DNA of 64,000 bases from the sequence record OK570374. One strand, 5' to 3'. The notes beneath the pieces were generated by a model. It had not been told where the DNA came from, made no database searches, and saw nothing but the letters and a program-made list of their open reading frames with translations. Source of the DNA: Escherichia phage UoN_LG358_1. Each line of letters opens with the position of its first letter. Within the stretch, counting starts at the first letter, position 1. This document shows positions 10,359-55,954 of the stretch, one piece after another. The translations under genes and the position numbers were made by a program.

Positions 10359-11537
10359 TTAGAAATATTTTTTGAAACCAATAATTACATTGTCGTCAAC
10401 GTCGCTGTCGATTTGAGCTACTAAGTAACTTGAAATTTCAACTTCCTGTGGAGCAGATTGTACCGCATCTGAGTTTAAGTATTCACGAATCCATGGAATT
10501 GGATGACGAGTAGGAGCATCGACTATTGGACATGGAAGACCACAACTACGCATACGAGAAACTGTCAAATAGTCAACAAAATCATGCAGAATTTTTACAT
10601 TCAGACCTGGCAACCCGCCATCTTTGAACAAGTGAATAGCCCATTCTTTTTCTTGACGGTTGATTTCCATAAAAATATCAACCGCTTCTTGTTCGCATTC
10701 ACGAGTAATCTGAACCCATTCGTCCCCATCTGCGCCTTGTTGAAGCTGACGAATAATATATTGAGTACCCTTAAGATGCAACTGTTCATCACGAGCGATG
10801 AACTTCATAATCTTGGAGTTGCCTTCCATTATTTCCATATTCTTATGGAAGTTAAAGGTACAAGCAAAACTCACATAAAAACGAATTGCTTCAAGACCAT
10901 TGATGACATGCAAACACAAATAAAGCGCTTTCATTAAGTCATGCTTGCATTGGTCTACGTAATCTTTAGCAGCTTGAACGAATTCTTCGTCATGGTCAGT
11001 GCCTTCATAAAACTCTAAATCAGCTTTAGAATTTTCCCAGTAACGAGTTTTACGAATAACATCATCATAGTAACGGCCAATTGATTCAGCTCGAGCCATA
11101 ATAGCATCATCTAAAACAATTTCATCAAAAATTTTGGCCGGGTCCGCAAACAGGTTACGCATAATATGCGTGTAAGAACGAGAGTGAATCGTTTCAGAGA
11201 AAGTCCAAGTCTGGTTCCAAGTATCTAATGACGGGTCAGAAATCAAAGCAGAAAGAACTGCAGCAGGTGCCCGTCCTTGAATACTGTCTAAAAGAGACTG
11301 ATATTTCAAGTTGTTAATAAAAATATTTTTTTGATGCTCTGGGAGTTTATCAAATTGAGCTCTGTCAGTCATCAAGTTAACTTCTTCTGGGCGCCAGAAA
11401 AATGAGAGCTGCTTTTCAATCAGTTCTTCAAATGTACGGTGACGCTGAATATCATACCGTGCTAAACCAAGACCGCTTCCGAAGAACATCGGTTCATTCA
11501 AAACATTAACTGGTTGTGTATTAAAAACTGTACTCAT
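10359..11537 (-). CDS. nrdB: ribonucleotide reductase small subunit, intronless
   Basis: 392 aa continuous ORF; R2 family features; synteny. Confidence 0.9.
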   Translation of the reverse strand: MSTVFNTQPVNVLNEPMFFGSGLGLARYDIQRHRTFEELIEKQLSFFWRPEEVNLMTDRAQFDKLPEHQKNIFINNLKYQSLLDSIQGRAPAAVLSALISDPSLDTWNQTWTFSETIHSRSYTHIMRNLFADPAKIFDEIVLDDAIMARAESIGRYYDDVIRKTRYWENSKADLEFYEGTDHDEEFVQAAKDYVDQCKHDLMKALYLCLHVINGLEAIRFYVSFACTFNFHKNMEIMEGNSKIMKFIARDEQLHLKGTQYIIRQLQQGADGDEWVQITRECEQEAVDIFMEINRQEKEWAIHLFKDGGLPGLNVKILHDFVDYLTVSRMRSCGLPCPIVDAPTRHPIPWIREYLNSDAVQSAPQEVEISSYLVAQIDSDVDDNVIIGFKKYF

Positions 11538-12262
11538 TTATTCACCTTTGCTCTTCCTCTTATCCATCCTTCAGGAATAGTTTCAGAGGATTCAATTAAT
11601 TTATTCTTAAACCCGTCGTTTATACAAATTTTACCACGGGCTCCTTTATAATTTCGTGGTTTTATTTTATCAAAATTAGGAGTAAGCGAATACGACCATC
11701 TGAATCCGTAAGCATACTGGAAATGGCCTTCAGCGCAATATTTGATATTAGAACCGTTCCCATTAACTGATTTAGCAGCTTCGGATATAGAAGGAAATGT
11801 CTCTATGAAATTACCGTCTAAATCAAATTTGTGTATAGTTACAGAAACTTCTTCTGCCCTTTTAATTAATGGTAATTTAATCTTTTCTAAAGAATCTTTA
11901 GAGTGCTTTTTGCCAAGCATTCCCTTGGGGTGTGGGTTATTAGCTAAATATTCTTTCATATATTTAGAGGATTCTTCGGAAAATCTCTCTCGGTGCCAAG
12001 CATATAATCTATTATTAATTCTATTTCCGGATTTATCGGTGCACATTAAAGTGATAGCACATAATAAACCGTATGTTTTATGAATTTTATAAAGCAACTG
12101 ATGCGCAATAAAGTGTTCTCTTGCGCTCAATGCCACTAAGTTATCTTTATCATCTGAACCACCCATGCATCGGGGAATGATGTGGTGATTTTCGGTATAG
12201 CCGATGAAAGGAGAGGCTTTTCGCCTCTCCATTAAGCTATCATATATTCTTTGATAGTTCAT
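11534..12262 (-). mobile_element. free-standing HNH homing endonuclease (mobE-like) between nrdA and nrdB
   Basis: 242 aa; HNH motif HHIIPRCMGGSDDKDNLVALSAREHFIAH; start overlaps nrdA stop (TAATG); paralogous to ORFs at 43627 and 55322. Confidence 0.8.
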
Positions 12263-14517
12263 TATAATTTACAAGCTGCACAGTCATCTGCTTTTGGTTG
12301 CTCAACTTCATAGTCATCTGTGCCAGAACCATCTCTAGTGTTATGATAATAGAGACTTTTTCCGCCAAAATACCAGAAGTAAAGTAGGTCATCAAGCATC
12401 ACGCTCATTGGTACTTTACCCTTTTCATAATTCTGAGGGTCATAGTAAGTATTAGCGGAAGCGCTTTGACACAAGAACTTGGTCATGATAGCAACTTGAG
12501 TTAGGTAAGGTTTGTTACCCTGTTTAGCCAATTTCCACGCATAATCATAAAGGTCTATGTTGTGCTCAATATTGGGCACGACTTGATTAAAGGAACCCTC
12601 TTTTGACTCTTTAACAGAGACTGGTCCACGCGGAGGTTCGATACCGTTTGTACTATTTGATACTTGGCTGCTTGACTCGCATGGCATGAGTGCAGATAAG
12701 GTGCTATTACGGATGCCGTAGTTAACCAAGTCTTTCCGCAGGCTCTCCCAGTCACACACATAATTGGGCGCTGCGATTTGGTCAATCTTTTTATTGTACC
12801 AGTCGATAGGTAATTCGCCTCTAGACCAACGAGTTTCTGAATAATATTCGCAAGGTCCTTTTTCTTTGGCGAGTTTAATTGAGGCTTTAATAAGTGCATA
12901 TTGTAATCTCTCAAATAATTCATGAGTTAAATCATTTGCGTCGGCATATGATGCAAAATTATCAGCCAACCAAGCAGCGTAGTTTGTAACACCTACACCT
13001 AATGCCCGCCGCTTCTTAGCTTTCAATGCTTCTTTTACAGGATAACCTTGATAGTCCAATAAATTATCTAAAGCACGAACTTGAACTTCTGCAAGTTCTT
13101 CAATCTTGTCTTGGTCCTGCCAGTCAAAATTACCCAACACAAATGCAGCTAATGTGCACAACGCAATTTCAGGGTCATCACTACCAACGTCTTTGGTCGG
13201 TAAAGCAATTTCTAAACAAAGATTACTCTGTTTAATTGGCGATGTTTCACGAATGAACGGAGTATAACGGTTCATATTATCAGTGAACGCTGGATACACT
13301 CGAGCCGTGCCAGAACGTTCTGTCATGAACAATTCAAACAATTCAAGAGCTTTGATGCGTTTCTTGCGAATAATTGGATTTTTTTCTAGTTCTTCATACA
13401 ATTCACGGAATTTATCTTCATCCCGGAAATAAGAATCGAACAATTCGCCATTAGCCACATCTGGACTGAACAGTGTGATGTACCCATTTTTACCGAGACG
13501 TTCCATCATCAAATCATTGATTTGCAGACCATAGTCTAGATGACGAATACGGTTTTCATCTACGCCTTTGTTGTTCTTTAATACCAACAGGTTTTCAACC
13601 TCAAGATGCCACATTGGATAATAAAGAGTAGCTGCACCACCACGTACACCGCCTTGAGAACAAGATTTTACTGCAGTCTGAAAATGTTTCCAGAAAGGAA
13701 TTACGCCAGTATGTTTTACTTCGCCATTACCAATTTTTGAGCCTTCAGCTCGAATCATACCGGCGTTGATGCCGATACCAGCTCGCTTGCTGATATACTT
13801 AATAATACTGTTACTTGCCGCATTAATAGAATTCAGTGAATCGCCAGCTTCAATAACTACACAAGAACTAAACTGACGAGTAGGAGTACGAGCCCCTGCC
13901 ATAATCGGTGTAGGCAATGAAATCTGTCGAGTAGATACAGCGTCATAAAAGCGAATAATATGAGCCAGACGATTTTCTGGTTCTTCTTGGTGTAGTGCCA
14001 TACCAATTAGCATGAATGCAAATTGAGGTGTCTCGTAAATTTTACCAGTTGAACGGTCTTTAACCAGATATTTTTCTTTGAGCTGCATCGCCCCAGCGTA
14101 AGTTAAATCAAAATCACGTTCGTGTTTGATTTTTGATTCCAAGAAAGTGATTTCTTCAGCTGAATACTTGGAGAGTAATTCTGAATCATATTTACCCTCA
14201 TTAACACAATAAGAAATGTGGTCAATAAAAGACGGCGGTTCGAATTGCCCGTACACTTCTTTGCGTAATGCGAACATAGCCAGGTTAGAAGCAACATATT
14301 GATAATCCGGTTCTTCTTTTGAAATGGAGTTTGCAGCTACTTTAATAGCAGCTTGTTGAATATCCTTAGTGCTGATTCCATCTTGGATATGGCTTTTAAT
14401 ACGCTCATATAATTCATATGGGTCAATTGAAGTACCTTCAGCGGCCCATACTAAAATCTTTTGAAGTTTGGATGGAATAAATTCCTGTTTAATTCCCGAT
14501 GATTTTACTACTTGCAT
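12262..14517 (-). CDS. nrdA: ribonucleotide reductase large subunit
   Basis: 751 aa; class Ia RNR alpha features including C-terminal CxxC tail; synteny. Confidence 0.95.
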   Translation of the reverse strand: MQVVKSSGIKQEFIPSKLQKILVWAAEGTSIDPYELYERIKSHIQDGISTKDIQQAAIKVAANSISKEEPDYQYVASNLAMFALRKEVYGQFEPPSFIDHISYCVNEGKYDSELLSKYSAEEITFLESKIKHERDFDLTYAGAMQLKEKYLVKDRSTGKIYETPQFAFMLIGMALHQEEPENRLAHIIRFYDAVSTRQISLPTPIMAGARTPTRQFSSCVVIEAGDSLNSINAASNSIIKYISKRAGIGINAGMIRAEGSKIGNGEVKHTGVIPFWKHFQTAVKSCSQGGVRGGAATLYYPMWHLEVENLLVLKNNKGVDENRIRHLDYGLQINDLMMERLGKNGYITLFSPDVANGELFDSYFRDEDKFRELYEELEKNPIIRKKRIKALELFELFMTERSGTARVYPAFTDNMNRYTPFIRETSPIKQSNLCLEIALPTKDVGSDDPEIALCTLAAFVLGNFDWQDQDKIEELAEVQVRALDNLLDYQGYPVKEALKAKKRRALGVGVTNYAAWLADNFASYADANDLTHELFERLQYALIKASIKLAKEKGPCEYYSETRWSRGELPIDWYNKKIDQIAAPNYVCDWESLRKDLVNYGIRNSTLSALMPCESSSQVSNSTNGIEPPRGPVSVKESKEGSFNQVVPNIEHNIDLYDYAWKLAKQGNKPYLTQVAIMTKFLCQSASANTYYDPQNYEKGKVPMSVMLDDLLYFWYFGGKSLYYHNTRDGSGTDDYEVEQPKADDCAACKL

Positions 14518-14585
14518 TTTATATCCTTAGTTATCAGATAATTTATTTTATCATCAAAGACTTTTAGCTTATCGTTTCCTCAAAG

Positions 14586-14611
14586 ACTAAAATGGCAGCC
14601 CGAAGGCTGCC
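14586..14611 (-). terminator. intrinsic terminator (GGCAGCC-UUCG-GGCUGCC + U-rich)
   Basis: hairpin followed by U-rich tract in - strand sense, upstream of nrdA. Confidence 0.5.
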
Positions 14612-14631
14612 TGTAGTGTTATATTTATTAT

Positions 14632-14820
14632 TTAAGCTTCTATTAATACAACAACTTTAACTGGACTTCTGTTCATATCAATACTCAGAAATATTGATTG
14701 GATAATATAAAAATATCCATTAATCATTATTTGACCGCCTTCTTTCAATTCGCGACCAATATCACTTTCAGTTTCGGCAAATACTTTATCACCATGCTCT
14801 GATGTAAATTTAATAAGCAT
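14632..14820 (-). CDS. hypothetical protein (62 aa)
   Basis: ORF between td exon 2 and nrdA. Confidence 0.35.
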   Translation of the reverse strand: MLIKFTSEHGDKVFAETESDIGRELKEGGQIMINGYFYIIQSIFLSIDMNRSPVKVVVLIEA

Positions 14821-14903
14821 AATATTCCTCTATAGAAACAGATTCAACGAAATAATTATAATAAGAAAAATGATAAGCGCAATAGTTAGTTTGTTCATAG
14901 CAG

Positions 14904-15215
14904 TCATACGGCCATTTTTCCTTTAATTACTGGGTGGCTTTCATAGTTTTTAAGAATAAAGTCGTTTATCTTCATATGAGTACAAACCCAATATAACTGC
15001 ATTTCAGTATCCCAATCTTCAAAACTATCTGGAAAATTAATTTCCAGTTCGCATAACTCTTTTGGCTCTCTGCAAAGAATTTCTTTACACTGTTCTGTAT
15101 GGTTCAAATATATGTGGGTATTGCCGCCAGTAAATACTAGATGCCCTGGTTTTAACCCAGTCATTTTAGCTATGATATGAATTAAAGCTCCGTAAGACGC
15201 GATATTAAATGGTAG
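14904..15215 (-). CDS. td: thymidylate synthase, exon 2
   Basis: exon begins CUACCAUUUAAUAUCGCG (LPFNIASYG) immediately after the intron-terminal G; C-terminal TS sequence. Confidence 0.85.
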   Translation of the reverse strand, partial: LPFNIASYGALIHIIAKMTGLKPGHLVFTGGNTHIYLNHTEQCKEILCREPKELCELEINFPDSFEDWDTEMQLYWVCTHMKINDFILKNYESHPVIKGKMAV

Positions 15216-16227
15216 CATTGTGTTCAGCTGAGGACGTTAATCTCAGCCCGGAATTTATCCAGCTGCATGTCACCATGCAGAGCAGACTATATCTTCATCT
15301 CAATGAGATGTCTATCGTTTCGAGCCACTTGGCCCTACTCCCTAAAGGGATAGTCGTTCGGCATTTAGCAATAAAACCAGTTCCATTTATCAGATTTTAC
15401 ACGGTATGTAACTAAGCCTGAAGAAATCTCAAAATGTCTAGCAGCATCTGCGGCGCATTCAAAAATAATACCATCACATGAAATTTTCTTAATATTAGAT
15501 GGCTTTCTGCCCTTTGCCTTGTTAGACAATATTTCTCGTGTTTCTTTTGAATGTTCTTTACCGAAGAACGGATTACTTTGTCCTGAACGGTCTCTACAAT
15601 TTGAACAAGTTTTAAATGCTGGGCTTATTCTTTTCCCGCACTTGCAAAACTTATGTTTTTCTGGGTTCCACCGTCCATTTAATTCACCTGGTTTACCATA
15701 AATTACTTTACGTCCATCAATACCAAGTTTTTCCATCTTAGCTTTAACAGTAGCAGCTCGCTTTTTTATAATTTCTTTCTTTAATGGATAATTAGTAAAA
15801 ACATCTCCAAAAGAAGCATCTGCGATGTTATAACCATTTTGTTTTGAATTTAGTGTTTTAATCCAGAAATTTTCTCGTTCAATAATTATATCTTTTTCGT
15901 ATGGAACTTCTTCCAATACAGAACATTCAAATACATTACCATGTTTATTATAAGACCGTTGGAGTTTTATAGAATGATGTGCATTATTAGATAAATCGGA
16001 AAAATGACGTTTCCATCTTTTATCAAAATCCTTTGCACTTCCAACATAAATCTTATTGTTTAAAACATTTTTAATTTGATAAATTCCACTTTTCATAAAC
16101 ACCTCTAAATTATAGAAGTATTTATTAAAGGGCGGTCCTACACATTTAGCACGGGATTGTCTACGAGAGAGGTTCCCCGTTTAGATAGATTACAAGTATA
16201 AGTCACCTTATACCCAGGCCTAAATTA
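15216..16227 (-). mobile_element. group I self-splicing intron in td
   Basis: interrupts TS coding sequence; intron 5' end reads UAAUUUAGGCCUGGGUAUAAGGUGACUUAUACUUGUAAUCUAUCUAAACGGGGAACCUCUC, near-identical to the T4 td intron start as recalled; exon 1 ends ...CUUGGGU. Confidence 0.85.
15365..16102 (-). CDS. intron-encoded GIY-YIG homing endonuclease I-TevI
   Basis: 245 aa; N-terminal GIY-YIG (SGIYQIKN...KIYVGSA), C-terminal ...KISCDGIIFECAADAARHFEISSGLVTYRVKSDKWNWFY as in I-TevI. Confidence 0.9.
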   Translation of the reverse strand: MFMKSGIYQIKNVLNNKIYVGSAKDFDKRWKRHFSDLSNNAHHSIKLQRSYNKHGNVFECSVLEEVPYEKDIIIERENFWIKTLNSKQNGYNIADASFGDVFTNYPLKKEIIKKRAATVKAKMEKLGIDGRKVIYGKPGELNGRWNPEKHKFCKCGKRISPAFKTCSNCRDRSGQSNPFFGKEHSKETREILSNKAKGRKPSNIKKISCDGIIFECAADAARHFEISSGLVTYRVKSDKWNWFYC

Positions 16228-16776
16228 ACCCAAGAAAACATCGACACTGCGTTGATACCACTGGAGGTCCAGAAACCCATTTCTTACGTTAAATTGATAT
16301 ACCATATGGCATGGTGGAAGCGCCATCTTAGAGAGCTCTAGAGGGTTCCAAGCTGTCACAATCTGCCTTCGGTCTGCCGGCATTTCTTTTATTCTATCAA
16401 TGACTAACTTCAATTGGTCCACGCCCATGAAATCACGCCATTGTTTACCATAAACCGGTCCTAGTTCACCGTCAGTATAACCCATCGAAACAGCTTGATT
16501 TTCATAATTATCATCCCAGACGGTTTTCCCTTCTGTTCGAGAACCATGTTGAATTTCGCGGAGGTCATCTACATTTGTTGAGCCAGATAAGAACCACAGC
16601 AATTCAGCAATGCACGATTTCCACGCGAGTTTCTTTGTTGTTACTGCGGGAAATCCTTCTTGTAAATCAAACCGAAGCTGAGTGCCAAATACAGCAATTG
16701 TTCCCGTGCCCGTACGATCATCAGTCTCATAGCCTTCGTCAAAAATGTGTTGAATTAGTTCTTGATATTGTTTCAT
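16228..16776 (-). CDS. td: thymidylate synthase, exon 1
   Basis: MKQYQELIQHIFDEGYETDDRTGTGT...LPPCHMVYQFNV (TS active-site region); in-frame UAA at intron start. Confidence 0.9.
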
Positions 16777-17123: not shown

Positions 17124-17135
17124 ATTATTTCCAGT

Positions 17136-18631: not shown

Positions 18632-18661
18632 TTTATTATCCTCATTTGTTTTGATAGGGTT

Positions 18662-42399: not shown

Positions 42400-42603
42400 T
42401 TAATCTTGGTTACGCTTAATCAATTCTGCAACTTCTAGAAGTTCTTCTGCCGTTGCGGTGTTGTTTTGTATTTTAAACCGTATTTCCTTAAAGCGTTCTT
42501 TAAAATCTTCAGCTTCACTCATGTCAAAAAATCTTTGAATGATGCGGTACTCTTTATATACAGCGTCATCAAATAATACCATACAAACGTTAAAGCTTTT
42601 CAT
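42400..42603 (-). CDS. hypothetical protein (67 aa)
   Basis: ORF upstream of rIIA. Confidence 0.4.
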   Translation of the reverse strand: MKSFNVCMVLFDDAVYKEYRIIQRFFDMSEAEDFKERFKEIRFKIQNNTATAEELLEVAELIKRNQD

Positions 42604-42889
42604 TTCCTACCTCTCTGAGGATGGCTGCAAACTGGCTCATAGTGTGTTTTTCACGTACAGAGTAAACCAGCCTCAAAGCGGTTTGTTGTAGGTTCACCGG
42701 AATGATCTGGTTGTTTTCAACTAATACAGCAATATGTTCTATCATATTAGAGAATTTATTTAACCAGATTTCATCTGGTGTATTCTCTGTTTTATTCAGA
42801 AACATATCTTTACTATCTCTAATTGTTGCTGCTACGTTGTATAAATTAACATAACTTCCGTTAAGCATTTTCATAGCTGTAATCACCAT
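42590..42889 (-). CDS. hypothetical protein (99 aa)
   Basis: ORF. Confidence 0.4.
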   Translation of the reverse strand: MVITAMKMLNGSYVNLYNVAATIRDSKDMFLNKTENTPDEIWLNKFSNMIEHIAVLVENNQIIPVNLQQTALRLVYSVREKHTMSQFAAILREVGNEKL

Positions 42890-42890
42890 A

Positions 42891-42917
42891 CTAAAAAGGG
42901 ACTCCCGAAGGAGTCCC
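42891..42917 (-). terminator. intrinsic terminator (GGGACUCC-UUCG-GGAGUCCC + U-run)
   Basis: same hairpin sequence as at 2905-2924; U-tract in - strand sense. Confidence 0.55.
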
Positions 42918-43112
42918 TGTTATTACCATGTGGCTTTTGACACCATACCTGTAACTTTCTTCAAAGAGTTGTCCGGCTGACGAACACGAATAGTAGCTAT
43001 ATCGCCAGGGAGAGGAAGAGCATCTCCCCACATATAACCGAAACTTCCATCTACAAGCGTTACCCAGATTTGTGACATATACTCTCCTATACGGGCGGAA
43101 TGCCCGTATTAT

Positions 43113-43460
43113 TTATTCACTCATCCAGACCTTGCGAGGAGCCGCATCATTACCCATAACCATTTCAAAAAGTTCTTTCCAATTTGGCGGCAATGACACT
43201 ACGTCATAAACCGGTTGCTGAATAACTCGTTCATATTCATCTTCTTCCAAAGAACCAAGTCCTTTGATGTAACGAAGTTTCCATCCAGCAAGTTTATCTT
43301 TTTCAGCTTCATATTCGGCGGCATTGTAATACCATTTTTGTTCAGAGCCCTTTGACATAATAATCACTGGGGTTTTAACAAACCGAATACGTCCTTCTTC
43401 GAACAATTTCGGCCAATTAGCAAAGAACGCTAGCAGGCTTGGATAAATTGACCCTGTGCC
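43113..43460 (-). CDS. 60: gp60 (topoisomerase II subunit) distal coding segment, starting at landing codon GGC 43460..43458
   Basis: ...TGSIYPSLLAFFANWPKLFEEGRIRFVKTPVII...RYIKGLGSLEEDEYERVIQQPVYDVV...ELFEMVMGNDAAPRKVWMSE matches recalled T4 gp60 after the bypass; has no ATG, the track uses an in-gap TTG. Confidence 0.7.
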   Translation of the reverse strand, partial: GTGSIYPSLLAFFANWPKLFEEGRIRFVKTPVIIMSKGSEQKWYYNAAEYEAEKDKLAGWKLRYIKGLGSLEEDEYERVIQQPVYDVVSLPPNWKELFEMVMGNDAAPRKVWMSE

Positions 43461-43505
43461 AAATATCTCTATTGTGAGGTATATCAATGATTAGCCCGAA
43501 GGCTA
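43461..43505 (-). other. 60: untranslated coding gap of gene 60 (translational bypass), begins with UAG inside a UUCG-capped hairpin
   Basis: mRNA GAU GGU UAG CCUUCGGGCUAAUCAUUGAUAUACCUCACAAUAGAGAUAUUU GGC ACA GGG UCA; near-identical in layout to the T4 gene 60 gap as recalled. Confidence 0.6.
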
Positions 43506-43640
43506 ACCATCAACATCAGCATCAGTCATGATGGCAATGTTTTTATAATTCAAAGAAGAAGTTGATGTACGACGTACAATTGTCTGGGCTTTATATGATT
43601 TCATATCAATTTCAGTTTCTTTAACTTTAGCAAATTTCAT
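43506..43640 (-). CDS. 60: gp60 proximal coding segment (45 codons, ends at take-off codon GGU)
   Basis: MKFAKVKETEIDMKSYKAQTIVRRTSTSSLNYKNIAIMTDADVDG then UAG; resembles recalled T4 gp60 N-terminus including the basic nascent-peptide signal. Confidence 0.65.
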
Positions 43641-44425
43641 TTAAAACCTCATAAAATTTTTCATCAGGAGTCCAACCGTTTTTAAACTGATTGAACGCGA
43701 TTTTGAACAGTTTCGTTTTGATAGTTATATTATTAACCGTTTTCCATTTAGCAATTCCGGTTTTCTTATAACTAACTGGGTCATAAACGTTAGCATACCA
43801 ATCATAAAGGGACGGAATCAACTTAACTGCGTCTGGATTGGTTTTAGATTTGTTATACCAAGGTTTAGATTTTTCAAGGGCGGCTGCTACTTTTGTAGCG
43901 TTTAACGTGTTACCAACTCCGCATAAACCAAGGTCCTTTATTAAAGGGTCGTCCGTTCTTAGTCTATAGGTTGTGTTATCTTTATCCTTGTAAACTCCGT
44001 ATCCTTTCACACCTTCAAATTTTCTTCCGTAATTTACGCCAACCCAATCTTCTTCAGTGTATTCGCCTTTCGTCAGTAATCGACATTCTCCAGTTTCTTT
44101 ATTTCTAAGTAAAATTTTGTCACGCATGAACTCAGCAGACCAATCTGAAATCATATTAACATAATTTTTCCTGGCTATTTCATAAAGTTTAGAACGAAAT
44201 ATTGTTCCAGAATTCATTATCCGGTTCAAAGCATAAGACATTTCTTTGTTTTTATGAATTTTAAACAATAACCAGTGCGCAATAAAATGTTCGCGATATG
44301 TCAATTTTACCAAATTATCTGAAGTATCTAATCCACCCATGCTTCTTGGAAGTATATGATGAATTTCTCCTTTAACCGGCGGAACCCTGGTTTTACCCCG
44401 GGAAATTAGTTTTTCTATAATTCAT
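43627..44425 (-). pseudogene. mobA-like HNH homing endonuclease, frameshifted
   Basis: ATG at 44425 (MNYRKTNFPG, stop) is +1 out of frame with the HNH body (…KTRVPPVKGEIHHILPRSMGGLDTSDNLV…); frames cross at a CCCGGGG run; the in-frame ORF of the track starts after the first His of the HNH motif. Confidence 0.55.
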
Positions 44426-45975
44426 ACTAAGTCTTTTACTTTTTTCCAGACGCCATCAATAAAAATTTCGTCATTGATATTAACTACAATATCTTCACCG
44501 GCAACATTTACAGTATACCATTGTTCGCCGGCTTCAACTTCCGTGAATGGGTCTTCACCAATGACTAACCCAGTAATTGCACAAATATCAAAGATTTCTT
44601 TGTTTTTCAAAGCATCACCTGCAGACATTCCCCAGGTGTTCATCACTTTACCACGTAATGGATAACCGCCATGAAGGGCACGGTCACGAGTATTAATTAG
44701 ATAACCAATAGCAGAATCACCTTCTGTTAAAAACAAAGTTGTTTCTACTTTATCATTACCATATTCGCCAGCTTTGATGTGTTTATGAACTTTAGCTTTG
44801 GCCGCCTTTTTCGCTGCTTTGGTTTCTGCTGCTTTCTCTGCCGCTAGTTTACGTGCTAATGCAGCTTCAATAATCGGCATTAAAATAGCATCAGATTTCA
44901 TAATCTGATTAGAAATTTTCTTTGCATCGAGATTTAAGTGAGATTTAATTTCGCCCCATGGACTTGTAAGACGCTCTTTGGTTTGCGAGTCAAAGCGCAA
45001 GTTACTCATATCTCGAATAAACATCAACACAGTAAAACACTCTTTAATACGAGCTTTGTTTACTTCAATTTTGTGTTTACGTTTAATAGCCGGAATTAAT
45101 TCATTAGCAATTTCGTCAATAACATAATCAATATGCGAACCGCCATTCTTTGTATGAATGTTGTTAACATAAGTCATTTGACGAAAACCATCTGGAGAAT
45201 TACCTATAGCCAAAGAATAATTTTCTTCATCAATAATGATAGCATTTTTATCATACTGCTTAGAATATTTTTTGAAATTACTATCAACTTTTTTATTGTT
45301 AAATTTAAATTCAATTTTTGGATAAACGACTGCCAATGTCTGTAAACGGTCCAACATAATATCAAAATAAACATCATCAAAATTGTTCATTTCGAAATGG
45401 CTAAAATCTGGAATAAATTCTACCTTAGTTCCTTTATAAGAGGATTTTTTGGATTTCCAAGAAACATTGTCAGAATTATTGCTACAAGAAACTGTTAATT
45501 CATTTTCTCCATCAGATGTTGTACCTTTAAACATAACAGAGAAAATATTAGTCAATGAAGAACCAACACCGTTTTGCCCGCCAGTTTTACGCTCTTCATC
45601 AGCTCCAAAGTTTCCGCCTGCCTTAGTTTTCGTCCATGCTGCTACTGGACCAGGAATTTCTTCACCTTCAGGAGTAGTAACCATAGCCTGTGGAATTCCA
45701 CGGCCATTATCTTCTACGGTCACTTTGCTTGTGGAAGAATCGATATTGACTGAAATTTTATTAGCAAATTTAAAACTTGTACGGATAGCTTCATCAACAG
45801 AGTTATCGATAATTTCATCAATAAGTTTGAGAACGCCAGCTACGTATTGTACCCGCTTAAATTCGCCAAAAACAAAACGCTCATGAAATTCGTTAGATAC
45901 ACTTCCGATGTACATTCCAGGACGCTTAAGAACGTGTTCCTTGTCAGAGAGCATTTGAATTTTATTTTCAATCAT
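44422..45975 (-). CDS. 39: DNA topoisomerase II large subunit gp39 (GyrB ATPase-like)
   Basis: 517 aa; GHKL ATPase motifs (EDNGRGIP, GGQNGVGSS); stop overlaps HNH ATG (ATGA). Confidence 0.9.
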   Translation of the reverse strand: MIENKIQMLSDKEHVLKRPGMYIGSVSNEFHERFVFGEFKRVQYVAGVLKLIDEIIDNSVDEAIRTSFKFANKISVNIDSSTSKVTVEDNGRGIPQAMVTTPEGEEIPGPVAAWTKTKAGGNFGADEERKTGGQNGVGSSLTNIFSVMFKGTTSDGENELTVSCSNNSDNVSWKSKKSSYKGTKVEFIPDFSHFEMNNFDDVYFDIMLDRLQTLAVVYPKIEFKFNNKKVDSNFKKYSKQYDKNAIIIDEENYSLAIGNSPDGFRQMTYVNNIHTKNGGSHIDYVIDEIANELIPAIKRKHKIEVNKARIKECFTVLMFIRDMSNLRFDSQTKERLTSPWGEIKSHLNLDAKKISNQIMKSDAILMPIIEAALARKLAAEKAAETKAAKKAAKAKVHKHIKAGEYGNDKVETTLFLTEGDSAIGYLINTRDRALHGGYPLRGKVMNTWGMSAGDALKNKEIFDICAITGLVIGEDPFTEVEAGEQWYTVNVAGEDIVVNINDEIFIDGVWKKVKDLV

Positions 45976-46014
45976 GTTATTATCCCAGTTTGAATTTGTC
46001 TGATAATTATATCA

Positions 46015-46380
46015 TCAATTTAATTTAGCAATTAATTCATCACGATATTTCATGAGATGATGAAGCGCCGGAGCCCCATATATAGGAGAACACAAACTTG
46101 AATTAGGTTTTTTACAAAATATGGTGTGAATAGCTTGCTCTTCACTTTCGTATGAAAACGTCAAAGTTTGGCTATACCGGTCATCATAATAGGCAGCATA
46201 ATTATTTTCTTCAATTACGATAAATTCTTGAACAACTTTATAATATTTTTGTAACCAGATGCACCGTCCGTTATCCAATTTAGTCGGGAACAATGCGAAT
46301 TTATATTTTCCAATCGCTCGTTCAACTAATCTAAGCTTGCTGGCGGCATTCTTTTGAATTGAAGATTTTCCAAATATCAT
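46015..46380 (-). CDS. hypothetical protein (121 aa)
   Basis: ORF. Confidence 0.4.
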   Translation of the reverse strand: MIFGKSSIQKNAASKLRLVERAIGKYKFALFPTKLDNGRCIWLQKYYKVVQEFIVIEENNYAAYYDDRYSQTLTFSYESEEQAIHTIFCKKPNSSLCSPIYGAPALHHLMKYRDELIAKLN

Positions 46381-46401
46381 AATATTTTTCTCACTTAGCT
46401 G

Positions 46402-46581
46402 TTAAGAATAATCGCGATTTTTGTATCCGTTGTAATGAACAGCGGGCGCAGCGGTTTCTCGGAACATTTTTCCTTCACAATTCAGAAATGAACATTCAAT
46501 TGGTTCATCACGTTCTGAGACCTTGCGCATCTTTTCTACCTTTTCACCGCAGGCTTCGCACGTGTAATCATAAATTGGCAT
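46402..46581 (-). CDS. small zinc-ribbon protein (about 59 aa)
   Basis: read from - strand: MPIYDYTCEACGEKVEKM...ECSFLNCEGKMF; CxxC...CxxC; below track cutoff. Confidence 0.35.
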   Translation of the reverse strand: MPIYDYTCEACGEKVEKMRKVSERDEPIECSFLNCEGKMFRETAAPAVHYNGYKNRDYS

Positions 46582-48475: not shown

Positions 48476-48696
48476 AGATATTCCTTAAATTCATTAATCT
48501 GTTTAGATATTTTATCATTAATTGATATAAGCGGTACTTGTCCTTGGAACCAAGCGATACTCATAGCTTCGTCGCGAATCTCGTTTAGTTGAAGCAATAA
48601 CGTAGATTGATGACCGCGCCACCAAGCATCTTCGGGTTTGTTAATTTCAATAGCATTAATCAACTTATCAAAATCATCAATATCAAGAGTAAACAT
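48463..48696 (-). CDS. hypothetical protein (77 aa)
   Basis: ORF. Confidence 0.4.
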   Translation of the reverse strand: MFTLDIDDFDKLINAIEINKPEDAWWRGHQSTLLLQLNEIRDEAMSIAWFQGQVPLISINDKISKQINEFKEYLCRA

Positions 48697-48705
48697 ATTT
48701 GTTCC

Positions 48706-50031: not shown

Positions 50032-50327
50032 ACCACTGATACCCTTTTAACACTTAATGTGTTCATAATTTGTCTGTTCATTCTACTTTCAATTTCAGAA
50101 AGCTTTTTAAACTTCATTTCAACTTTATCGAACCAGAAACGACGTTTCTTAATTGTAGTTTCTACTTTACCGACATTCAATATATGAGTAAGATAAGTTT
50201 TTAGCTGCTCATAATGCTTCACAGCATCATCAAATTTTTCATAGATTGTAGCCTTTCCAGATTCGAAGTACGGGAGTTCAAACCCGTCTTTATCTTTGTA
50301 GACTAACATGTATCCATAGTGCATCAC
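50028..50327 (-). CDS. hypothetical protein (99 aa)
   Basis: ORF upstream of dda. Confidence 0.4.
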   Translation of the reverse strand: MMHYGYMLVYKDKDGFELPYFESGKATIYEKFDDAVKHYEQLKTYLTHILNVGKVETTIKKRRFWFDKVEMKFKKLSEIESRMNRQIMNTLSVKRVSVV

Positions 50328-51106: not shown

Positions 51107-51161
51107 AACGATATTCCTTATTTGCTTTTTATGCGAAGATGGTATAATGGTTTCAAGGATT

Positions 51162-51191
51162 ATTCTAATACACTCTATCCGGAAAGTAAAC
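51162..51191 (-). promoter_or_regulatory. early promoter-like element (GTTTAC-N18-TAGAAT)
   Basis: - strand GTTTAC 51191..51186 with weaker -10. Confidence 0.4.
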
Positions 51192-51193
51192 GG

Positions 51194-51826
51194 TTAGAAT
51201 GAATAAAAATCCAAATGATATACAGTATATGACGGAGATAAAGGGTCATACTGTAACTCTTCAATCTCCACTATCTCAAATTGTGTTCCAATAGGGAACA
51301 TCCATTCATCTTCTCCATTGACCATTTCAAGTTTATCCAGTCTTTCATCAAAAATAAAATCTGGGTCTATGCTGTGCATAAATTCTGTGTCTGGCGCAGC
51401 CAGAAGCATATTCAGTGCGTGCTCTTGATAGTTAAAAGCAAATGGGCAATTACGTAATGACAAAATAGTATGAGTACCATACACACTCCCTCCAGCGAAT
51501 TGTCTTGCTGTGGAAAAATCTGATGTAAATGACGTAACTCGGTCATCAGCAATAATTCTTCCTACAGCCATATTTTTCAACCAAGCTTCGGTACGTTTTG
51601 ACACTCCTCTGTAGAGTTCAACTGGAACGTCAGAACTAATATGCTTACGTATAATTTTGTCCAGTTCTACATGCAAAGTTTTGTCAATTTTATCATTCAT
51701 ACACTGCCAAAGTATGCTCTGTTCAAAATCACTGAACATCTTAATTTTTTCTTCATACAATCCATAGAGATTGTTATCAACTATGTTACAAACGATTTCA
51801 TTAAGCTGAGAATTTGTGTATAACAT
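51194..51826 (-). CDS. ADP-ribosyltransferase (ModA/ModB-like)
   Basis: 210 aa; R-S-E triad candidates: LYRGVS, FTSDFSTA, FEIVEIEE; position of T4 modA/modB. Confidence 0.55.
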   Translation of the reverse strand: MLYTNSQLNEIVCNIVDNNLYGLYEEKIKMFSDFEQSILWQCMNDKIDKTLHVELDKIIRKHISSDVPVELYRGVSKRTEAWLKNMAVGRIIADDRVTSFTSDFSTARQFAGGSVYGTHTILSLRNCPFAFNYQEHALNMLLAAPDTEFMHSIDPDFIFDERLDKLEMVNGEDEWMFPIGTQFEIVEIEELQYDPLSPSYTVYHLDFYSF

Positions 51827-51852
51827 AATAGCCTCCGTAGTTTACAGAAGCT

Positions 51853-51882
51853 ATCATAACACATTTTGACTGGGATGTAAAC
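51853..51882 (-). promoter_or_regulatory. T4-type early promoter (GTTTAC-N18-TATGAT)
   Basis: - strand GTTTAC 51882..51877, TATGAT 51858..51853. Confidence 0.55.
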
Positions 51883-51884
51883 GG

Positions 51885-52079
51885 TTATTCTGTCCACGGA
51901 GCCCAAGGAGGAGGGTCTAACCAGATAGAAGAGAGTTCTTCTACGAAAGTGTCGTTGAGTTTTACACCGTGCCGTAAGGCAAGAACAAAAAGCTCTTGTT
52001 TGATTTCAGCACGTCGGTTGCCAAATGCTTCTGAATTTTTTGACTGGTCTTCTTCAAATAAATCAAATAAATCCGACAT
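51885..52079 (-). CDS. hypothetical protein (64 aa)
   Basis: ORF. Confidence 0.4.
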   Translation of the reverse strand: MSDLFDLFEEDQSKNSEAFGNRRAEIKQELFVLALRHGVKLNDTFVEELSSIWLDPPPWAPWTE

Positions 52080-52564
52080 TACATACCTCTGATGTATTTG
52101 ACAGCAGTTACGGACATAGTTTTTTCTTCAAATCCATTACGACGAATTCCAGTATCATTAAAATGATGCCAAATGAATTTTTCCAATTCAACGATGTGTT
52201 CAGGAGTATTTACAATAAATTTTTTGAAGATTTTTGTGCCATATCCATCTGTATGACACAAAGCTTCGCTAAAATTGAATTCTGGAAAAATGTATTTCTG
52301 ACTGAGCAAAGTTTCTACCATACCAAACGGTGAATTTTCGCATTTGTCGATATTACAATCATGAATGATTTCTAACAATGCATTTTCGGGAATTCGCATT
52401 TTCATAAACTGCTTTTCTAGATTATTATAATGCTCGTTTGAAAAAGGTGCAGGTTCACCATACTGAGTTAGAACAACTTCAAACTTTTCTCGAGTTTCTT
52501 CTACTCGTCGATTAGTTCTTTTATAGAATTTCACTACAAATGACTTTGTTTTCATATTTTTCAT
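52079..52564 (-). CDS. hypothetical protein (161 aa)
   Basis: ORF. Confidence 0.45.
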   Translation of the reverse strand: MKNMKTKSFVVKFYKRTNRRVEETREKFEVVLTQYGEPAPFSNEHYNNLEKQFMKMRIPENALLEIIHDCNIDKCENSPFGMVETLLSQKYIFPEFNFSEALCHTDGYGTKIFKKFIVNTPEHIVELEKFIWHHFNDTGIRRNGFEEKTMSVTAVKYIRGM

Positions 52565-52578
52565 GATATTCTCTTATT

Positions 52579-52782
52579 TTATGACTTATCGCCGTAAATG
52601 TTAGTTAAAAGCTTTTTAGCTTCTATTGAAATACGTTTAGCTTCTTGTTCATTGCGCCAATTTCTAGCGTATTCTTCCGCTTCATGTTGAAGTTCTTGCT
52701 CAACTTTAGCAACCCATTCATCATCTAAATGAGTAGGTGTTTCAAACCAATTTTTGAATTCTTCGTACCATCGTTTAATCAT
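52579..52782 (-). CDS. hypothetical protein (67 aa)
   Basis: ORF. Confidence 0.4.
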   Translation of the reverse strand: MIKRWYEEFKNWFETPTHLDDEWVAKVEQELQHEAEEYARNWRNEQEAKRISIEAKKLLTNIYGDKS

Positions 52783-53018
52783 AACCAGGATGTCCCAAAG
52801 CGAATAACAGATTTTTCACCTACAAAGTGAAAGTGAGCCTCATATACGACACGTAAAGCAGTACCTTCCTCACGGTAGCAATGAATAAAGATGTCTACTA
52901 AATCATACAGATTTGGGCTATTTGTGATAAACAAATGTTCATGAATTAAGCGATTTGCAATAAGACTATTGATACCACCAACTTCTTCAACTGGCTTCAT
53001 CCAGTTAGATGTTTTCAT
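52779..53018 (-). CDS. hypothetical protein (about 79 aa)
   Basis: start moved to the internal Met; the track's N-terminus runs through the soc terminator hairpin. Confidence 0.4.
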   Translation of the reverse strand: MKTSNWMKPVEEVGGINSLIANRLIHEHLFITNSPNLYDLVDIFIHCYREEGTALRVVYEAHFHFVGEKSVIRFGTSWL

Positions 53019-53054
53019 AATATTATCCTCATTTGATAAAAGAATTATATCATA

Positions 53055-53082
53055 TCGTTTAAAAGCAAAAAAGGGACTCCCG
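53055..53082 (-). terminator. intrinsic terminator after soc (GGGACUCC-UUCG-GGAGCCCC + U-run)
   Basis: hairpin and U-tract in - strand sense 16 nt after soc stop. Confidence 0.6.
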
Positions 53083-53097
53083 AAGGAGCCCCTGCAA

Positions 53098-53343
53098 TCA
53101 ACCACCTGGTACTACTGGCGGTACGCCTTTAAACATATCAGCGTTTTTGGCAATCCAAGCGTCTCTTTGAGCTTCTTCAAAAACGGTAGAATACGCCGCT
53201 TTTTCGGAAGGGAAGAGTTGATAATGAGAACCAGCAATTTGATGCACGTCGGAGTAAAGCTTAAAAGCTACAGAAACTTCCATACCTTTTACTTCACCGT
53301 CGGCATTTGTATGGTCAAACGTTTTTACGTTAACATAACTCAT
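53098..53343 (-). CDS. soc: small outer capsid protein Soc
   Basis: 81 aa; ...YVNVKTF...EVSVAFKLYSDVHQIAGSHYQLFPSEKAAYSTVFEE matches recalled T4 Soc. Confidence 0.8.
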   Translation of the reverse strand: MSYVNVKTFDHTNADGEVKGMEVSVAFKLYSDVHQIAGSHYQLFPSEKAAYSTVFEEAQRDAWIAKNADMFKGVPPVVPGG

Positions 53344-53370
53344 GTAATTCTCCTTTGTTGATTACATGAG

Positions 53371-53378
53371 TATTTATT
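53371..53378 (-). promoter_or_regulatory. candidate late promoter for soc (AATAAATA, 7/8)
   Basis: near-consensus late motif 28 nt upstream of soc ATG. Confidence 0.3.
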
Positions 53379-53529
53379 AATAGTTATTTAAAGCCTCTAC
53401 TATATCTGCTATGATATCTTCAGAATCGCCAATAAGTTCTCGAAGAGATTTGTACTTATCTTCTGGACTTAGAGGATTTAAGCCCCAATATTTTATTAAA
53501 GCATTTTCAATATCAGAATATGAAATCAT
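53377..53529 (-). CDS. hypothetical small protein (about 50 aa)
   Basis: read from - strand (MISYSDIENALIKYWGL...); ATG overlaps gene 56 stop. Confidence 0.3.
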   Translation of the reverse strand: MISYSDIENALIKYWGLNPLSPEDKYKSLRELIGDSEDIIADIVEALNNY

Positions 53530-54047
53530 TAGTATCCTCGGTTTTGCCGCTCAAAGTTTTCAGCATTTTTCAGATAGTAAAGTTTAAAGATTTCTTCAGC
53601 CGACATGCCTAATCCTTGGAACATATTCAACACAAAGTGAAGAATATCAATCATTTCAAATTTAATTTCTAATTGGTCTTTTGAAGACATTTCAGAAATA
53701 AGACGATTGCGTAATTCTGCATGTTGTGCTTTCCATGGTTTCCAGACAGAAGAAGCAGCCTTCTCGCCATTAGACATACCGCCCAGAGAAGTCAACAGCT
53801 CACGGAATTCGTCATCGATATAATCTTTCTGATTACGTAGCCAATCAACAACTTCACCAGCTTTAGCTAAGTCATCTGGATTGCGGTTATAGTCAGGTTT
53901 ATCATTTGCTAGACGCACTTGCAATGATTTTTGCATGTCAAGCATCACTTGAAGCGGGTCAATACCAGCATTCACAGCATCATAATACGCATTTTCTGCT
54001 TTTTCATTGCCAGAGATGAGTTGAGAACATTCATTAAAATGGGCCAT
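53529..54047 (-). CDS. 56: dCTP pyrophosphatase gp56
   Basis: MAHFNEC...DPLQVMLDMQ...IDDEFRELLTSLG...DQLEIKFE...ILHFVLNMF.GLGM.AEEIFKLYYLKN.ENF.RQ.RGY matches recalled T4 gp56; start set at MAHFNE. Confidence 0.85.
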   Translation of the reverse strand: MAHFNECSQLISGNEKAENAYYDAVNAGIDPLQVMLDMQKSLQVRLANDKPDYNRNPDDLAKAGEVVDWLRNQKDYIDDEFRELLTSLGGMSNGEKAASSVWKPWKAQHAELRNRLISEMSSKDQLEIKFEMIDILHFVLNMFQGLGMSAEEIFKLYYLKNAENFERQNRGY

Positions 54048-54087
54048 TATATTTCCTGTCAAAGTATTAAATAGTTTAGGAGGATTT

Positions 54088-54297
54088 ATGTCTGAAAAAA
54101 TTAAAACCCCAGAAAATAAAAATCTGAAGTCTCAATTCGTTGAGAACAAAGGTAAATTAATCTTAGTTGGAGTTATTACAGCTGTAATAACAGCATGGAA
54201 CTATATTATCATCCCTTTCGCATTAGCATATGGGTTTACTTTACCTCCAATTCCATTGGATAAAGTTATTCATTTCATTATGCTCGGAGGATTTTAA
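54088..54297 (+). CDS. small membrane protein (69 aa) on the + strand
   Basis: strong SD AGGAGG 6 nt before ATG; two hydrophobic segments; no - strand ORF exists in this 230-nt interval. Confidence 0.35.
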   Translation: MSEKIKTPENKNLKSQFVENKGKLILVGVITAVITAWNYIIIPFALAYGFTLPPIPLDKVIHFIMLGGF

Positions 54298-55322
54298 ACT
54301 CCAATCTTTGAGTAATTCTTAAGGCGAAGTTGAGCCATCAAACCCGAAGATATATTTTCGGAAATATATTTTTCGATGTCTTCAACTTTCGCCCCTTCAT
54401 TTTTTATCATATCATTAATGTCTTTTTCTTTCCATTGAGATTTATCCCAAAACACAACTCTTTCGCCAGCGTCTATCAAACGCTTCATTCGCTTGATTGT
54501 GTCTTCTTTTCTTGGTTCATGGTCCATAATCCATACTCTATCTTCTTTAAATGGAACCAAATCCAAATCAATAGCGCCACCGGTGATGGCAATAGCATTG
54601 CCCAAGAACAATGAGTCTATCGGGCCTTCTAATACAAAAATATTTTGACCGGTCTTTGCTGTGTCTAATCCGTATATTTTTGTTGCATGTTCGTTTCGTT
54701 TAATTGTTATGTATTTTTGAGGGGCGTCTTTACGCAATGCTCTTCCTTGAAAACTTTCAATAATACCTTTCTCATTAAAGATTGGAATTACTAAACGAGG
54801 CTCATTACGTTCTGTTTTATAAGTTCCGGGATTAACGGAATTCACCAAAGCTGGCCATTCCATCGTAAAATACAAACGGTTCCAACGAGATTTTGGAATA
54901 CAACGATGTTTAACGTATTTTATAATAGGATGCTCTTCTGACAAACTATCTAAGCGGCTGCAATGAACTAATTTAATTCCTTCTGGTTCTTTAATTTCAA
55001 CTTTTTTCACCTCTGGTTTTGTATCAGGCTTAAAAGTCATTTTGTCCTTTCTGAGTTCTAAAATAAACTCACGGTATAAATCAGGTTCATATTCCTTTAA
55101 ATACACCCCAATTGGTTTTCCATAATCACAGTTATAACACTTCAAAAATACATCATCGCCCGTGCCATAAGCCCAAAAACGAGCTTTTAATGCGTCTTTC
55201 TGTGAGTCGCCACAGACTGGGCAGCGGCAGTTTAACTTGAATTGGGATACGTTGTTTACTTGACGAAAGCGAGGTAAGTGAGATAATGCACGAAATGCAT
55301 ACTCGTTATGGACCCATGACAT
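54294..55322 (-). CDS. 61: DNA primase gp61
   Basis: 342 aa; zinc ribbon CRCPVCGDS...CYNCDY; ...YLKEYEPDLYREFI matches recalled T4 gp61. Confidence 0.9.
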   Translation of the reverse strand: MSWVHNEYAFRALSHLPRFRQVNNVSQFKLNCRCPVCGDSQKDALKARFWAYGTGDDVFLKCYNCDYGKPIGVYLKEYEPDLYREFILELRKDKMTFKPDTKPEVKKVEIKEPEGIKLVHCSRLDSLSEEHPIIKYVKHRCIPKSRWNRLYFTMEWPALVNSVNPGTYKTERNEPRLVIPIFNEKGIIESFQGRALRKDAPQKYITIKRNEHATKIYGLDTAKTGQNIFVLEGPIDSLFLGNAIAITGGAIDLDLVPFKEDRVWIMDHEPRKEDTIKRMKRLIDAGERVVFWDKSQWKEKDINDMIKNEGAKVEDIEKYISENISSGLMAQLRLKNYSKIGV

Positions 55323-55954
55323 TATACTCTCCTAAAATCGTCTATAATTTTTTGATAACTAATATCCGGATATCCCAATTTAATTGCTAATTTTCTAAAT
55401 TTAACATATCCTATATTACCATTAGAGTTCCAAAGCTCTTTTAATTCATCGTAGTATTTCCATTGAGGGCCTCTTTTCATTTCTGAAATTATTTTAGAAA
55501 CATGTGGTCTACGTTTGCCATATGTTGCGCTTCCACTACCCTTTCTTTTTTCTGACCACATCTTTTTGGTTTCAATGGAATGTGTTTTTCCATAAAATGG
55601 GTTTCCTTTACCGGAGTAAAGACTAGATTGAGTTTTTGATAATTGAGTTCTAATCCAACTATATTCCTTATTGTTTCTGCTAGTATATTTTCCATTTATA
55701 GTTAATTGCTTAGCAGCGCATAATAACGAATAATATTGCTTTGTGTTCAATTTTTTATATATTTTTGATAACAATTGATGAACTACGAAATGTTCTGATG
55801 CTGTAAGCAAAACCAAATTATCATCACTATCTAGTCCTCCAATAGATTTTGGAATTATATGATGTTTTTCTGAATAAAAATTTAATTTAGATTTATCCAG
55901 TCCTCGTAATTTAGCTTTGTTGATAATAGAATCATGTATCTTTTGATAATTCAA
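55322..55954 (-). mobile_element. free-standing HNH homing endonuclease between genes 41 and 61
   Basis: 210 aa; HNH motif HHIIPKSIGGLDSDDNLVLLTASEHFVVH; start codon is TTG (AGGAGA-N5-TTG AAT TAT) where paralogues have ATG AAT TAT. Confidence 0.75.

Follow-up and report, generated by a model that had tools for sequence, protein, structure and literature searches.

The Mob family of phage T4 comprises free-standing HNH homing endonucleases. Three genes that resemble them are present in Escherichia phage UoN_LG358_1 (sequence record OK570374), of which a stretch of 64,000 nucleotides, called the window below, was analysed. All of them lie on the minus strand, as do the other genes treated here. 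Copy 1 (11534-12262) is located between nrdA and nrdB, copy 2 (43627-44425) inside the gene for the large subunit of topoisomerase II, at the junction of genes 39 and 60, and copy 3 (55322-55954) between 61.1 and the primase gene, 61. We estimate a probability of about 85% that these open reading frames (ORFs) belong to the T4 Mob family, represent different site-specific lineages, and arrived separately.

The original paper on MobA and translational bypass is reportedly that of Bonocora et al. 2011. In the laboratory, nrdA and nrdB of T4 are dispensable, and mutants in genes 39, 60, and 61 are of the DNA-delay type; a first-pass annotation of the window, which had called the neighbouring genes essential, was therefore too strong on this point. 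T4 MobE, which is promoterless, nicks nrdB of phage T2 at nucleotides 122-126 and is inherited at high frequency (PMC2790892). The UAAUGA overlap of nrdA and mobE has been proposed as a translational coupling that limits MobE (PMC2988022). The MobA element has been described in six phage clades, with S16 named together with its GGU/GGC pair (bioRxiv 10.1101/2022.08.31.505936, Manning & Atkins). In the same preprint, bypass is regarded as self-protection of the MobA element, and stepwise loss of the nuclease is described as a recurring event elsewhere among phages (bioRxiv 10.1101/2022.08.31.505936). Super-Mendelian inheritance and nicking have been shown only for T4 MobE (PMC2790892) and, as cited in that preprint, for MobA (bioRxiv 10.1101/2022.08.31.505936).

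Family membership and the shared domain

The first-pass annotation had described the three ORFs as mob-type free-standing HNH homing endonuclease genes with a common N-terminal core, and all of them are present at the positions given above. The core MNY...HH(I/L)(I/L)P...GG.D..DNLV...EHF..H.LL is found in 3/3 copies, and a motif scan of the six-frame translation of the window for HH(I/L)(I/L)P...GG...DNL returned exactly three matches, which are these ORFs. The assignment to the Mob type was upheld by matches of all copies to PHROG 655 ("homing endonuclease"), almost over the full length and with E values from 1e-52 to 1e-58 (1.7e-58 for copy 1), and by the invariant MNY, HH, N, and H residues. 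In total, M1, N2, Y3, E24, H26, H27, P30, G34, G35, N41, H50, and H54 are invariant in T4 MobB, MobC, MobD, MobE, and the three copies. The HNH core also aligns with 6me0, a solved group II intron maturase with an HNH domain, across HH...DN...H. Copy 1 is an intact gene of 242 aa with a weak HNH match and a NUMOD1 domain, and copy 3 is an intact gene of 210 aa with a TTG start, a NUMOD3 domain, and orthologues that occupy this position elsewhere. Copy 2 is a mobA pseudogene that is interrupted by a frameshift, as seen in the alignment with S16.

Pairwise BLASTP comparison gave 43% identity over 110 aa for copies 1 and 3 (E=3e-26), 41% over 103 aa for copies 1 and 2 (E=2e-18), and 57% over 49 aa for copies 2 and 3 (E=8e-15). 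The homology that the first-pass annotation had asked to be checked by alignment is therefore real in the N-terminal 50-110 residues and does not extend beyond them. The C-terminal halves, which contain NUMOD1 in copy 1 and NUMOD3 in copy 3, have no similarity among the copies, and in the C-terminal part of copy 2 no domain was detectable, its only match being T4 gp60.1. A profile hidden Markov model (HMM) of the N-terminal domain found no fourth copy in the six-frame translation of the window (next match E=0.5); it was built partly from these copies, and only the lack of a fourth one is informative. As in the Mob family, all three copies are free-standing between genes, outside any intron or intein, in the orientation of their neighbours, the C-terminal region, which is the DNA-binding part in this family, is distinct in each (NUMOD1, NUMOD3, or none detectable), and presence among close relatives is sporadic, with flanking co-conversion tracts.

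Among the T4 proteins, copy 1 aligns over its full length with MobB and copy 3 with MobD (34% over 255 columns). The sites differ, as T4 mobB lies by alpha-gt and T4 mobD by nrdC.11. Nicking endonucleases of the I-HmuI type resemble the Mob copies in having an HNH core followed by NUMOD1 or NUMOD3; unlike the copies, I-HmuI is intron-encoded, and there is no significant sequence or fold match to it (a NUMOD-like match in the domain search is weak, E=0.003).

The inserts are lower in G+C than their neighbours (0.289 to 0.351 versus 0.354 to 0.418). Scans for sigma-70 promoters and terminators around all three copies were at or under shuffle expectation on the coding strand, and the T4 late-promoter motif TATAAATA was not found near any copy. 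At the Rfam gathering threshold, neither a group I intron nor any other Rfam family was detected at the three loci or elsewhere in the window, in a scan that also overlooks the td intron described below, which appears only under the threshold.

Relatives and distribution of the inserts

The three regions match Gelderlandvirus phages of Salmonella (S16, STP4-a, STML-198, Melville, CGG4-1, and SEA1) with 94-100% identity, and their gene order is that of T4. The window belongs to Gelderlandvirus, in the Salmonella phage S16/STP4-a group. Its backbone is essentially identical to STP4-a at 10000-14900, 42500-46500, and 53900-58800, where most 100-nt bins contain 0 mismatches. Unlike this STP4-a-like backbone, the cassettes at nrdA-nrdB and 39/60 are of the S16 type.

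Among close relatives, each insert is present or absent independently of the others, between flanks that are 95-100% identical, and all combinations occur. Copy 1 is carried by STML-198, S16, CGG4-1, Melville, and ABTNLPp2, and is missing from STP4-a and SEA1. Copy 2 is found in S16, UTK0003, and AKM_NP4; SEA1 has lost it by deletion and retains the split and the bypass, and the gene is uninterrupted in 6 other phages. Within the genus, copy 3 is known from STP4-a only, and S16 and the other members are without it. The comparison of insertion sites with phages that lack the genes, which had been suggested in the first-pass annotation, has thus provided empty sites for all three (STP4-a and SEA1 for copy 1, STP4-a for copy 2, and S16 for copy 3). 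No record with all three inserts was present among the 50,697 phages of the collection. Independent presence and absence, together with tight clusters of mostly synonymous changes at the flanks in a backbone that equals STP4-a, are marks of recent homing.

The first-pass annotation had called the genes paralogous. If this is taken to mean local duplicates, the three would be recent copies made within this genome and spread by ectopic insertion, an origin with which the shared N-terminal domain (41-57% identity) and the invariant MNY start are in keeping. Each copy is closer to its counterpart in other phages than to the other copies: copy 3 has 63% identity to the Kp5N protein over 211 aa, that is, over its full length, and copy 2 has 64-68% identity to the T4 mobA/60.1 remnants. 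Moreover, the C-terminal halves are unrelated, and each gene comes and goes independently between nearly identical flanks. Intragenomic duplication was rejected on this best-match pattern, and we regard it as very improbable. Separate arrival of members of different lineages remains the preferred explanation.

The insert between nrdA and nrdB

T4 MobE is the described gene at this site. Copy 1 shares with it the intergenic position and orientation, the UAAUGA overlap, the lack of a detected promoter of its own, and 52% identity over 93 aa, in the N-terminal part only (residues 1-88 align). Its ATG overlaps the stop of nrdA as TAATGA, as in T4 mobE, in agreement with the TAATG coupling noted earlier, and its own TGA overlaps the nrdB ATG (ATGA). 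The gene is full length and matches the intact genes of S16, CGG4-1, and Melville.

Several properties set copy 1 apart from T4 MobE. It has 242 aa with a NUMOD1 C-terminal part, whereas T4 MobE has 141 aa; no internal terminator was found in the terminator scan; nrdB has no adjoining intron; and the substitutions linked to the mob gene lie in the nrdA 3' end and not at nrdB nucleotides 122-126. The best full-length match among T4 proteins is MobB, with 37.6% identity over 205 aa. Accordingly, the earlier description of this gene as mobE-like is right for the insertion site and the N-terminal 93 aa, and not for the protein as a whole. The accompanying statements that nrdB is intronless and that copy 1 is not associated with an intron were both correct, as nrdB is a single uninterrupted ORF of 392 aa with no group I intron at the Rfam threshold.

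In STP4-a and SEA1, nrdA and nrdB are separated by a spacer of 50 nt, and in the window, STML-198, S16, CGG4-1, and Melville the mob gene stands in its place. The window equals STP4-a over approximately 4.9 kb around nrd except for three scattered differences, the insert, and the 3' end of nrdA. This end, the last ~117 nt of nrdA (12262-12378, minus strand), contains 26/27 of the nrdA differences from STP4-a (binomial P=2e-32), matches S16 and STML-198 instead, and appears to be a tract that was brought in with copy 1. Within it, the last 24 nt of nrdA contain 7 synonymous changes that are perfectly linked to the presence of the mob gene (5 phages with it versus 2 without). The ~117-nt tract probably contains or adjoins the target site of the enzyme. 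Copy 1 therefore shares the T4 mobE site and yet most likely recognises another sequence, namely the end of nrdA and the spacer.

Two further observations concern this junction in related phages. In STML-198, the mob gene contains an additional G within an AAAAGGG run (aligned to window position ~11860), which causes a frameshift at approximately codon 134, and the GenBank annotation contains only a 345-nt hypothetical ORF at this place; the extra G may be decay or a homopolymer read error. In S16 and SEA1, nrdB is interrupted by a 1093-nt insertion, annotated as an intron-like endonuclease and aligned to window position ~10890, which the window does not have, and in S16 there are 22 mismatches in the 100 nt that adjoin it. 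All four combinations of the mob gene and the nrdB insertion occur within the genus, and the two elements thus move independently.

The MobA element in gene 39/60

Copy 2 is part of a MobA element (43458-44551, minus strand) inside the topoisomerase II large-subunit gene, the bounds of which were obtained by aligning the window with S16, SEA1, and the uninterrupted gene of STP4-a. The element comprises 1094 nt here and 1105 nt in S16; with the 11 deleted nucleotides described below, the present one also comes to 1105 nt, within the published range of 1097-1106 nt. Its parts are a 42-aa C-terminal extension of gp39, mobA, a new N-terminus of gp60 of 45 codons with a homR stretch, and a bypass cassette. 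The traits of the MobA element that were found are the insertion site in topoisomerase II, the C- and N-terminal extensions, homR, the bypass cassette, and a size of ~1100 nt, and the likeness to the T4 and S16 elements includes the same insertion point in the Toprim region, the gp39 tail, and the 45-codon gp60 head. An intact mob ORF of 269-279 aa is missing as a result of the 11-nt deletion.

The translational-bypass cassette of gene 60 (43458-43508, minus strand) was delimited by alignment to the T4 hop. The putative take-off codon GGT (43506-43508) is followed by TAG and by a hairpin capped with UUCG, and, as in T4 and S16, a GAG, the mini Shine-Dalgarno sequence, lies 6 nt before the landing codon GGC (43458-43460). 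GGT/GGC would be a take-off and landing pair for one tRNA. The gap of 48 nt is in frame, contains two stops, and aligns base for base with the hop of T4 gene 60, being two bases shorter, and the hairpin can be extended to 16 pairs (fold z=-3.4). In T4, by contrast, the pair is GGA/GGA and the gap 50 nt.

The ATG of copy 2 overlaps the gene 39 TGA (ATGA), as had been reported in the first-pass annotation, and at the 3' end of the copy 14 nt are shared with gene 60. The mob gene of S16 is an intact ORF of 269 aa. In the window, an 11-nt deletion between 44416 and 44414, just after ATGAATTATA, shifts the frame after codon 3, at codon 4, where S16 has GTTTGATATAT. Apart from this deletion, there are 0 mismatches to S16 over 43609-44730, and the S16-like tract around 39/60 extends over roughly 43400-44730. 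The ATG frame contains 10 codons (MNYRKTNFPG*) and stops at the TAA in 44393-44395. The HNH body (43627-44421) is now in the frame of gene 39, directly after the gene 39 TGA, and the first ATG in this frame, at 44340, lies downstream of the catalytic HH with no start codon before it. The frameshift that had been claimed is thus real, and by its sequence copy 2 is a pseudogene; the element is present and its nuclease gene is dead, as in T4. The T4 reference mobA is degraded in another way, with several frameshifts and stops, and in SEA1 the mob gene is gone while the split, both extensions, and the gap are kept. The lesion in copy 2 agrees with the published account, in which the nuclease is lost step by step once the element has inserted.

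Two features, an HNH body that follows the gene 39 TGA immediately and in the frame of that gene, and a short ATG frame that stops inside a C/G run, raise the question of expression by recoding, either through a +1 shift at CCC GGG G|TAA A or through read-through of the gene 39 TGA, which, if true, would produce a fusion of gp39 and MobA. The S16 mob gene runs through these very bases without interruption, so the apparent slippery site is incidental; none of the other records compared has the deletion, no stimulatory structure was found, although no search aimed at one was made, and mobA has repeatedly become a pseudogene elsewhere. Programmed frameshifting and read-through were rejected on the S16 comparison, and we consider recoding extremely improbable. 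A sequencing or assembly artefact, with a gene that is in fact intact as in S16, would be a different explanation of the frameshift. Outside the deletion, the gene is 100% identical to its S16 counterpart, and a very recent lesion would look just the same. The loss of 11 nt in non-homopolymer sequence is atypical of base-calling errors and has a junction ambiguity of 1 nt only, and we find an artefact unlikely. Loss of the nuclease frame by deletion remains the preferred interpretation.

The insert between 61.1 and gene 61

Copy 3 had been placed between 61 and 41. It in fact follows the 61.1 homologue and ends at gene 61, gene 41 being four genes away in the upstream direction. In T4, 61.1 and 61 are 2 nt apart with nothing between them. 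The first-pass annotation had also stated that each copy begins at or near the stop of its upstream gene, which is true of copies 1 and 2. For copy 3 it is not, as a spacer of 39 nt (55955-55993, minus strand) intervenes, with a hairpin and an AGGAG of its own (55961-55965) 6 nt before the TTG. Coupling is found at the 3' end, where the TAA of copy 3 overlaps the ATG of gene 61 (TAATG). The start reads TTG AAT TAT, so the reported TTG with retention of NY was accurate.

The hairpin, GTGGCCTTA-gaaa-TAAGGCCAC at 55968-55989, is situated between 61.1 and the Shine-Dalgarno sequence. It is kept in the mob-less S16 and in Karamvirus KMB19, and accordingly is a feature of the resident 61.1-61 junction that did not come with the insert. 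The copy 3 region equals STP4-a apart from one base in this hairpin: the window has a G at 55989, which gives one more base pair than in STP4-a, S16, and KMB19. In the empty site of S16, the ATG of gene 61 comes immediately after the hairpin and AGGAG, and the same Shine-Dalgarno sequence serves gene 61. Copy 3 was thus inserted between the Shine-Dalgarno sequence and the ATG of gene 61; it uses the resident Shine-Dalgarno sequence and supplies a near-copy AGGAG (55329-55333) for gene 61. The first 33 nt of gene 61 (55290-55322, minus strand) contain 6/7 of the differences from the mob-less S16 across the 1029-nt gene (P=7e-9), of which five are synonymous and the sixth is Y8F. These 33 nt appear to be the target-site region, altered in genomes that carry the mob gene.

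Orthologues of copy 3 with 49-63% identity occupy the same site, directly upstream of the primase gene, in Karamvirus KMB19 and VPA32 (58% identity each), Jiaodavirus Kp5N (63%), and Kanagawavirus PEi26. With Gelderlandvirus, this shows a site-specific lineage that extends across four genera. The KMB19 and VPA32 genes are full length and begin with TTG behind AGGAG, and those of Kp5N and PEi26 begin with ATG. The first-pass annotation had taken the TTG for a sign of decay. As intact Karamvirus orthologues share it, and an optimal AGGAG stands in front, the idea of a lesion was rejected; the TTG is probably a weak and working start that is tolerated and limits expression. Decay at different stages, as had been proposed for the three genes, therefore applies to copy 2, with its 11-nt deletion relative to S16, and not to copies 1 and 3, which are full length.

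A more specific proposal is tentative, and we would give it somewhat less than even odds as a whole. Copy 1 may be a MobB-like enzyme at the classic mobE site that recognises the nrdA 3' end and the junction rather than nrdB, and copy 3 may define a conserved homing site, made up of the gene 61 ribosome-binding site and first 11 codons, in at least four genera of Tevenvirinae, with the TTG as an expression throttle in two of them.

Proposed mechanism and history

Each copy is a promoterless cassette, oriented with its early or middle operon, that keeps its neighbours expressed. The arrangements that serve this are start/stop overlaps or a replacement Shine-Dalgarno sequence at the 3' end of the insert. 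Initiation of the mob genes themselves appears weak, as a termination-reinitiation overlap with no Shine-Dalgarno sequence precedes copies 1 and 2 and copy 3 has a TTG start, and the amount of nuclease is probably kept low in this way. If the enzymes act as T4 MobE and MobA do, then in a mixed infection the Mob enzyme would nick one strand of the allele without the mob gene in a related phage, close to the point of insertion, and repair by recombination from the mob-bearing genome would then copy in the gene with a short flank. The likely targets are the nrdA 3' end and intergenic junction for copy 1, and the region from the Shine-Dalgarno sequence to codon 11 of gene 61 for copy 3. For the carrier genome, protection would come from an altered target, be it through the insert itself, through silent changes in a cluster, or, in the case of MobA, through the bypass cassette.

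The history of the window may have begun with an STP4-a-like genome that already contained copy 3 and gained the copy 1 cassette and an S16-type MobA element. The mobA nuclease would then have been killed by the 11-nt deletion, and the split topoisomerase and the bypass would have stayed, with the phage now dependent on them.

Several points weigh against this account or against parts of it. The two Pfam HNH matches (20.6 and 21.0 bits) are just under the curated cutoff of 21.4. The AlphaFold2 model of copy 1, computed from an alignment of 10 sequences, has a mean pLDDT of 58 and is usable for residues 1-80 only, and Foldseek found no match to this model in the PDB at E<=0.001, only weak ones to HNH domains. 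Among the phages compared, the first 240 nt of nrdB, where T4 MobE nicks, contain no change linked to the mob gene, and the T4 MobE mechanism is therefore not transferable in detail to copy 1. In the 3' part of the MobA element (43407-43608), approximately 10 positions differ from S16 and also from STP4-a; the donor was thus not S16 itself, and these positions point to an unsampled phage as the probable source. The 11-nt deletion could be an assembly error. The order of events may also have been the reverse, in that STP4-a lost inserts when it recombined with phages that have no mob genes. The direction of transfer (a gain by the present phage or a loss by STP4-a), the target sites, and nicking itself are all features that we infer from comparison of sequences.

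A further question is whether the genes are retained mainly for the benefit of the phage, as a weapon that excludes the markers of co-infecting relatives or in some other role beneficial to the host of the element, in which case the element with a dead mobA would be immunity without the weapon. The split, the bypass, and the extensions outlast the nuclease here and in SEA1, the same persistence is seen in other clades (bioRxiv 10.1101/2022.08.31.505936), and a T-even Seg endonuclease is reported to aid immune evasion (PMC13096335). The retention of the split and the bypass is, however, explained simply by the present need of the topoisomerase for them, and cycles of parasitic gain and loss fit the patchy distribution of the genes as well as the decay seen in copy 2 and in copy 1 of STML-198. 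Sequence does not separate benefit from selfish drive, and we judge retention mainly for phage benefit improbable. Separately acquired Mob genes that spread by homing remain the favoured interpretation.

Much of this is known already. Annotations of public relatives name all three genes as homing endonucleases, the S16 MobA element is described in the preprint, and nrdA-nrdB is the textbook mobE site. What is new is the combination of inserts in one genome, the 11-nt lesion, a MobB-like enzyme at the mobE site with linked changes in nrdA, and the 61.1-61 lineage across four genera. The window can be used as a natural experiment of modest value: its backbone is close to STP4-a, and two cassettes with conversion tracts of ~50-175 nt locate the junctions and suggest target sites for two uncharacterised Mob enzymes. 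The decay series of MobA and bypass also gains a step, from the intact gene in S16 through the 11-nt deletion here to SEA1, where the nuclease gene is gone. The general understanding of these elements is left unaltered.

A fourth homing element in td

The thymidylate synthase gene, td, is split within 14904-16776 into two exon ORFs (16225-16776 and 14904-15218, minus strand). STP4-a has the same sequence here (100% identity), whereas S16 and STML-198 lack the insert. Between the exons lies an ORF (15365-16102) for an I-TevI-like GIY-YIG endonuclease (TIGR01453, 166 bits), and a group I intron is indicated by a sub-threshold Rfam match at 15263-15440 (42.6 bits versus a cutoff of 50, E=5e-9). 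The td insert is the fourth homing-endonuclease element in the window.

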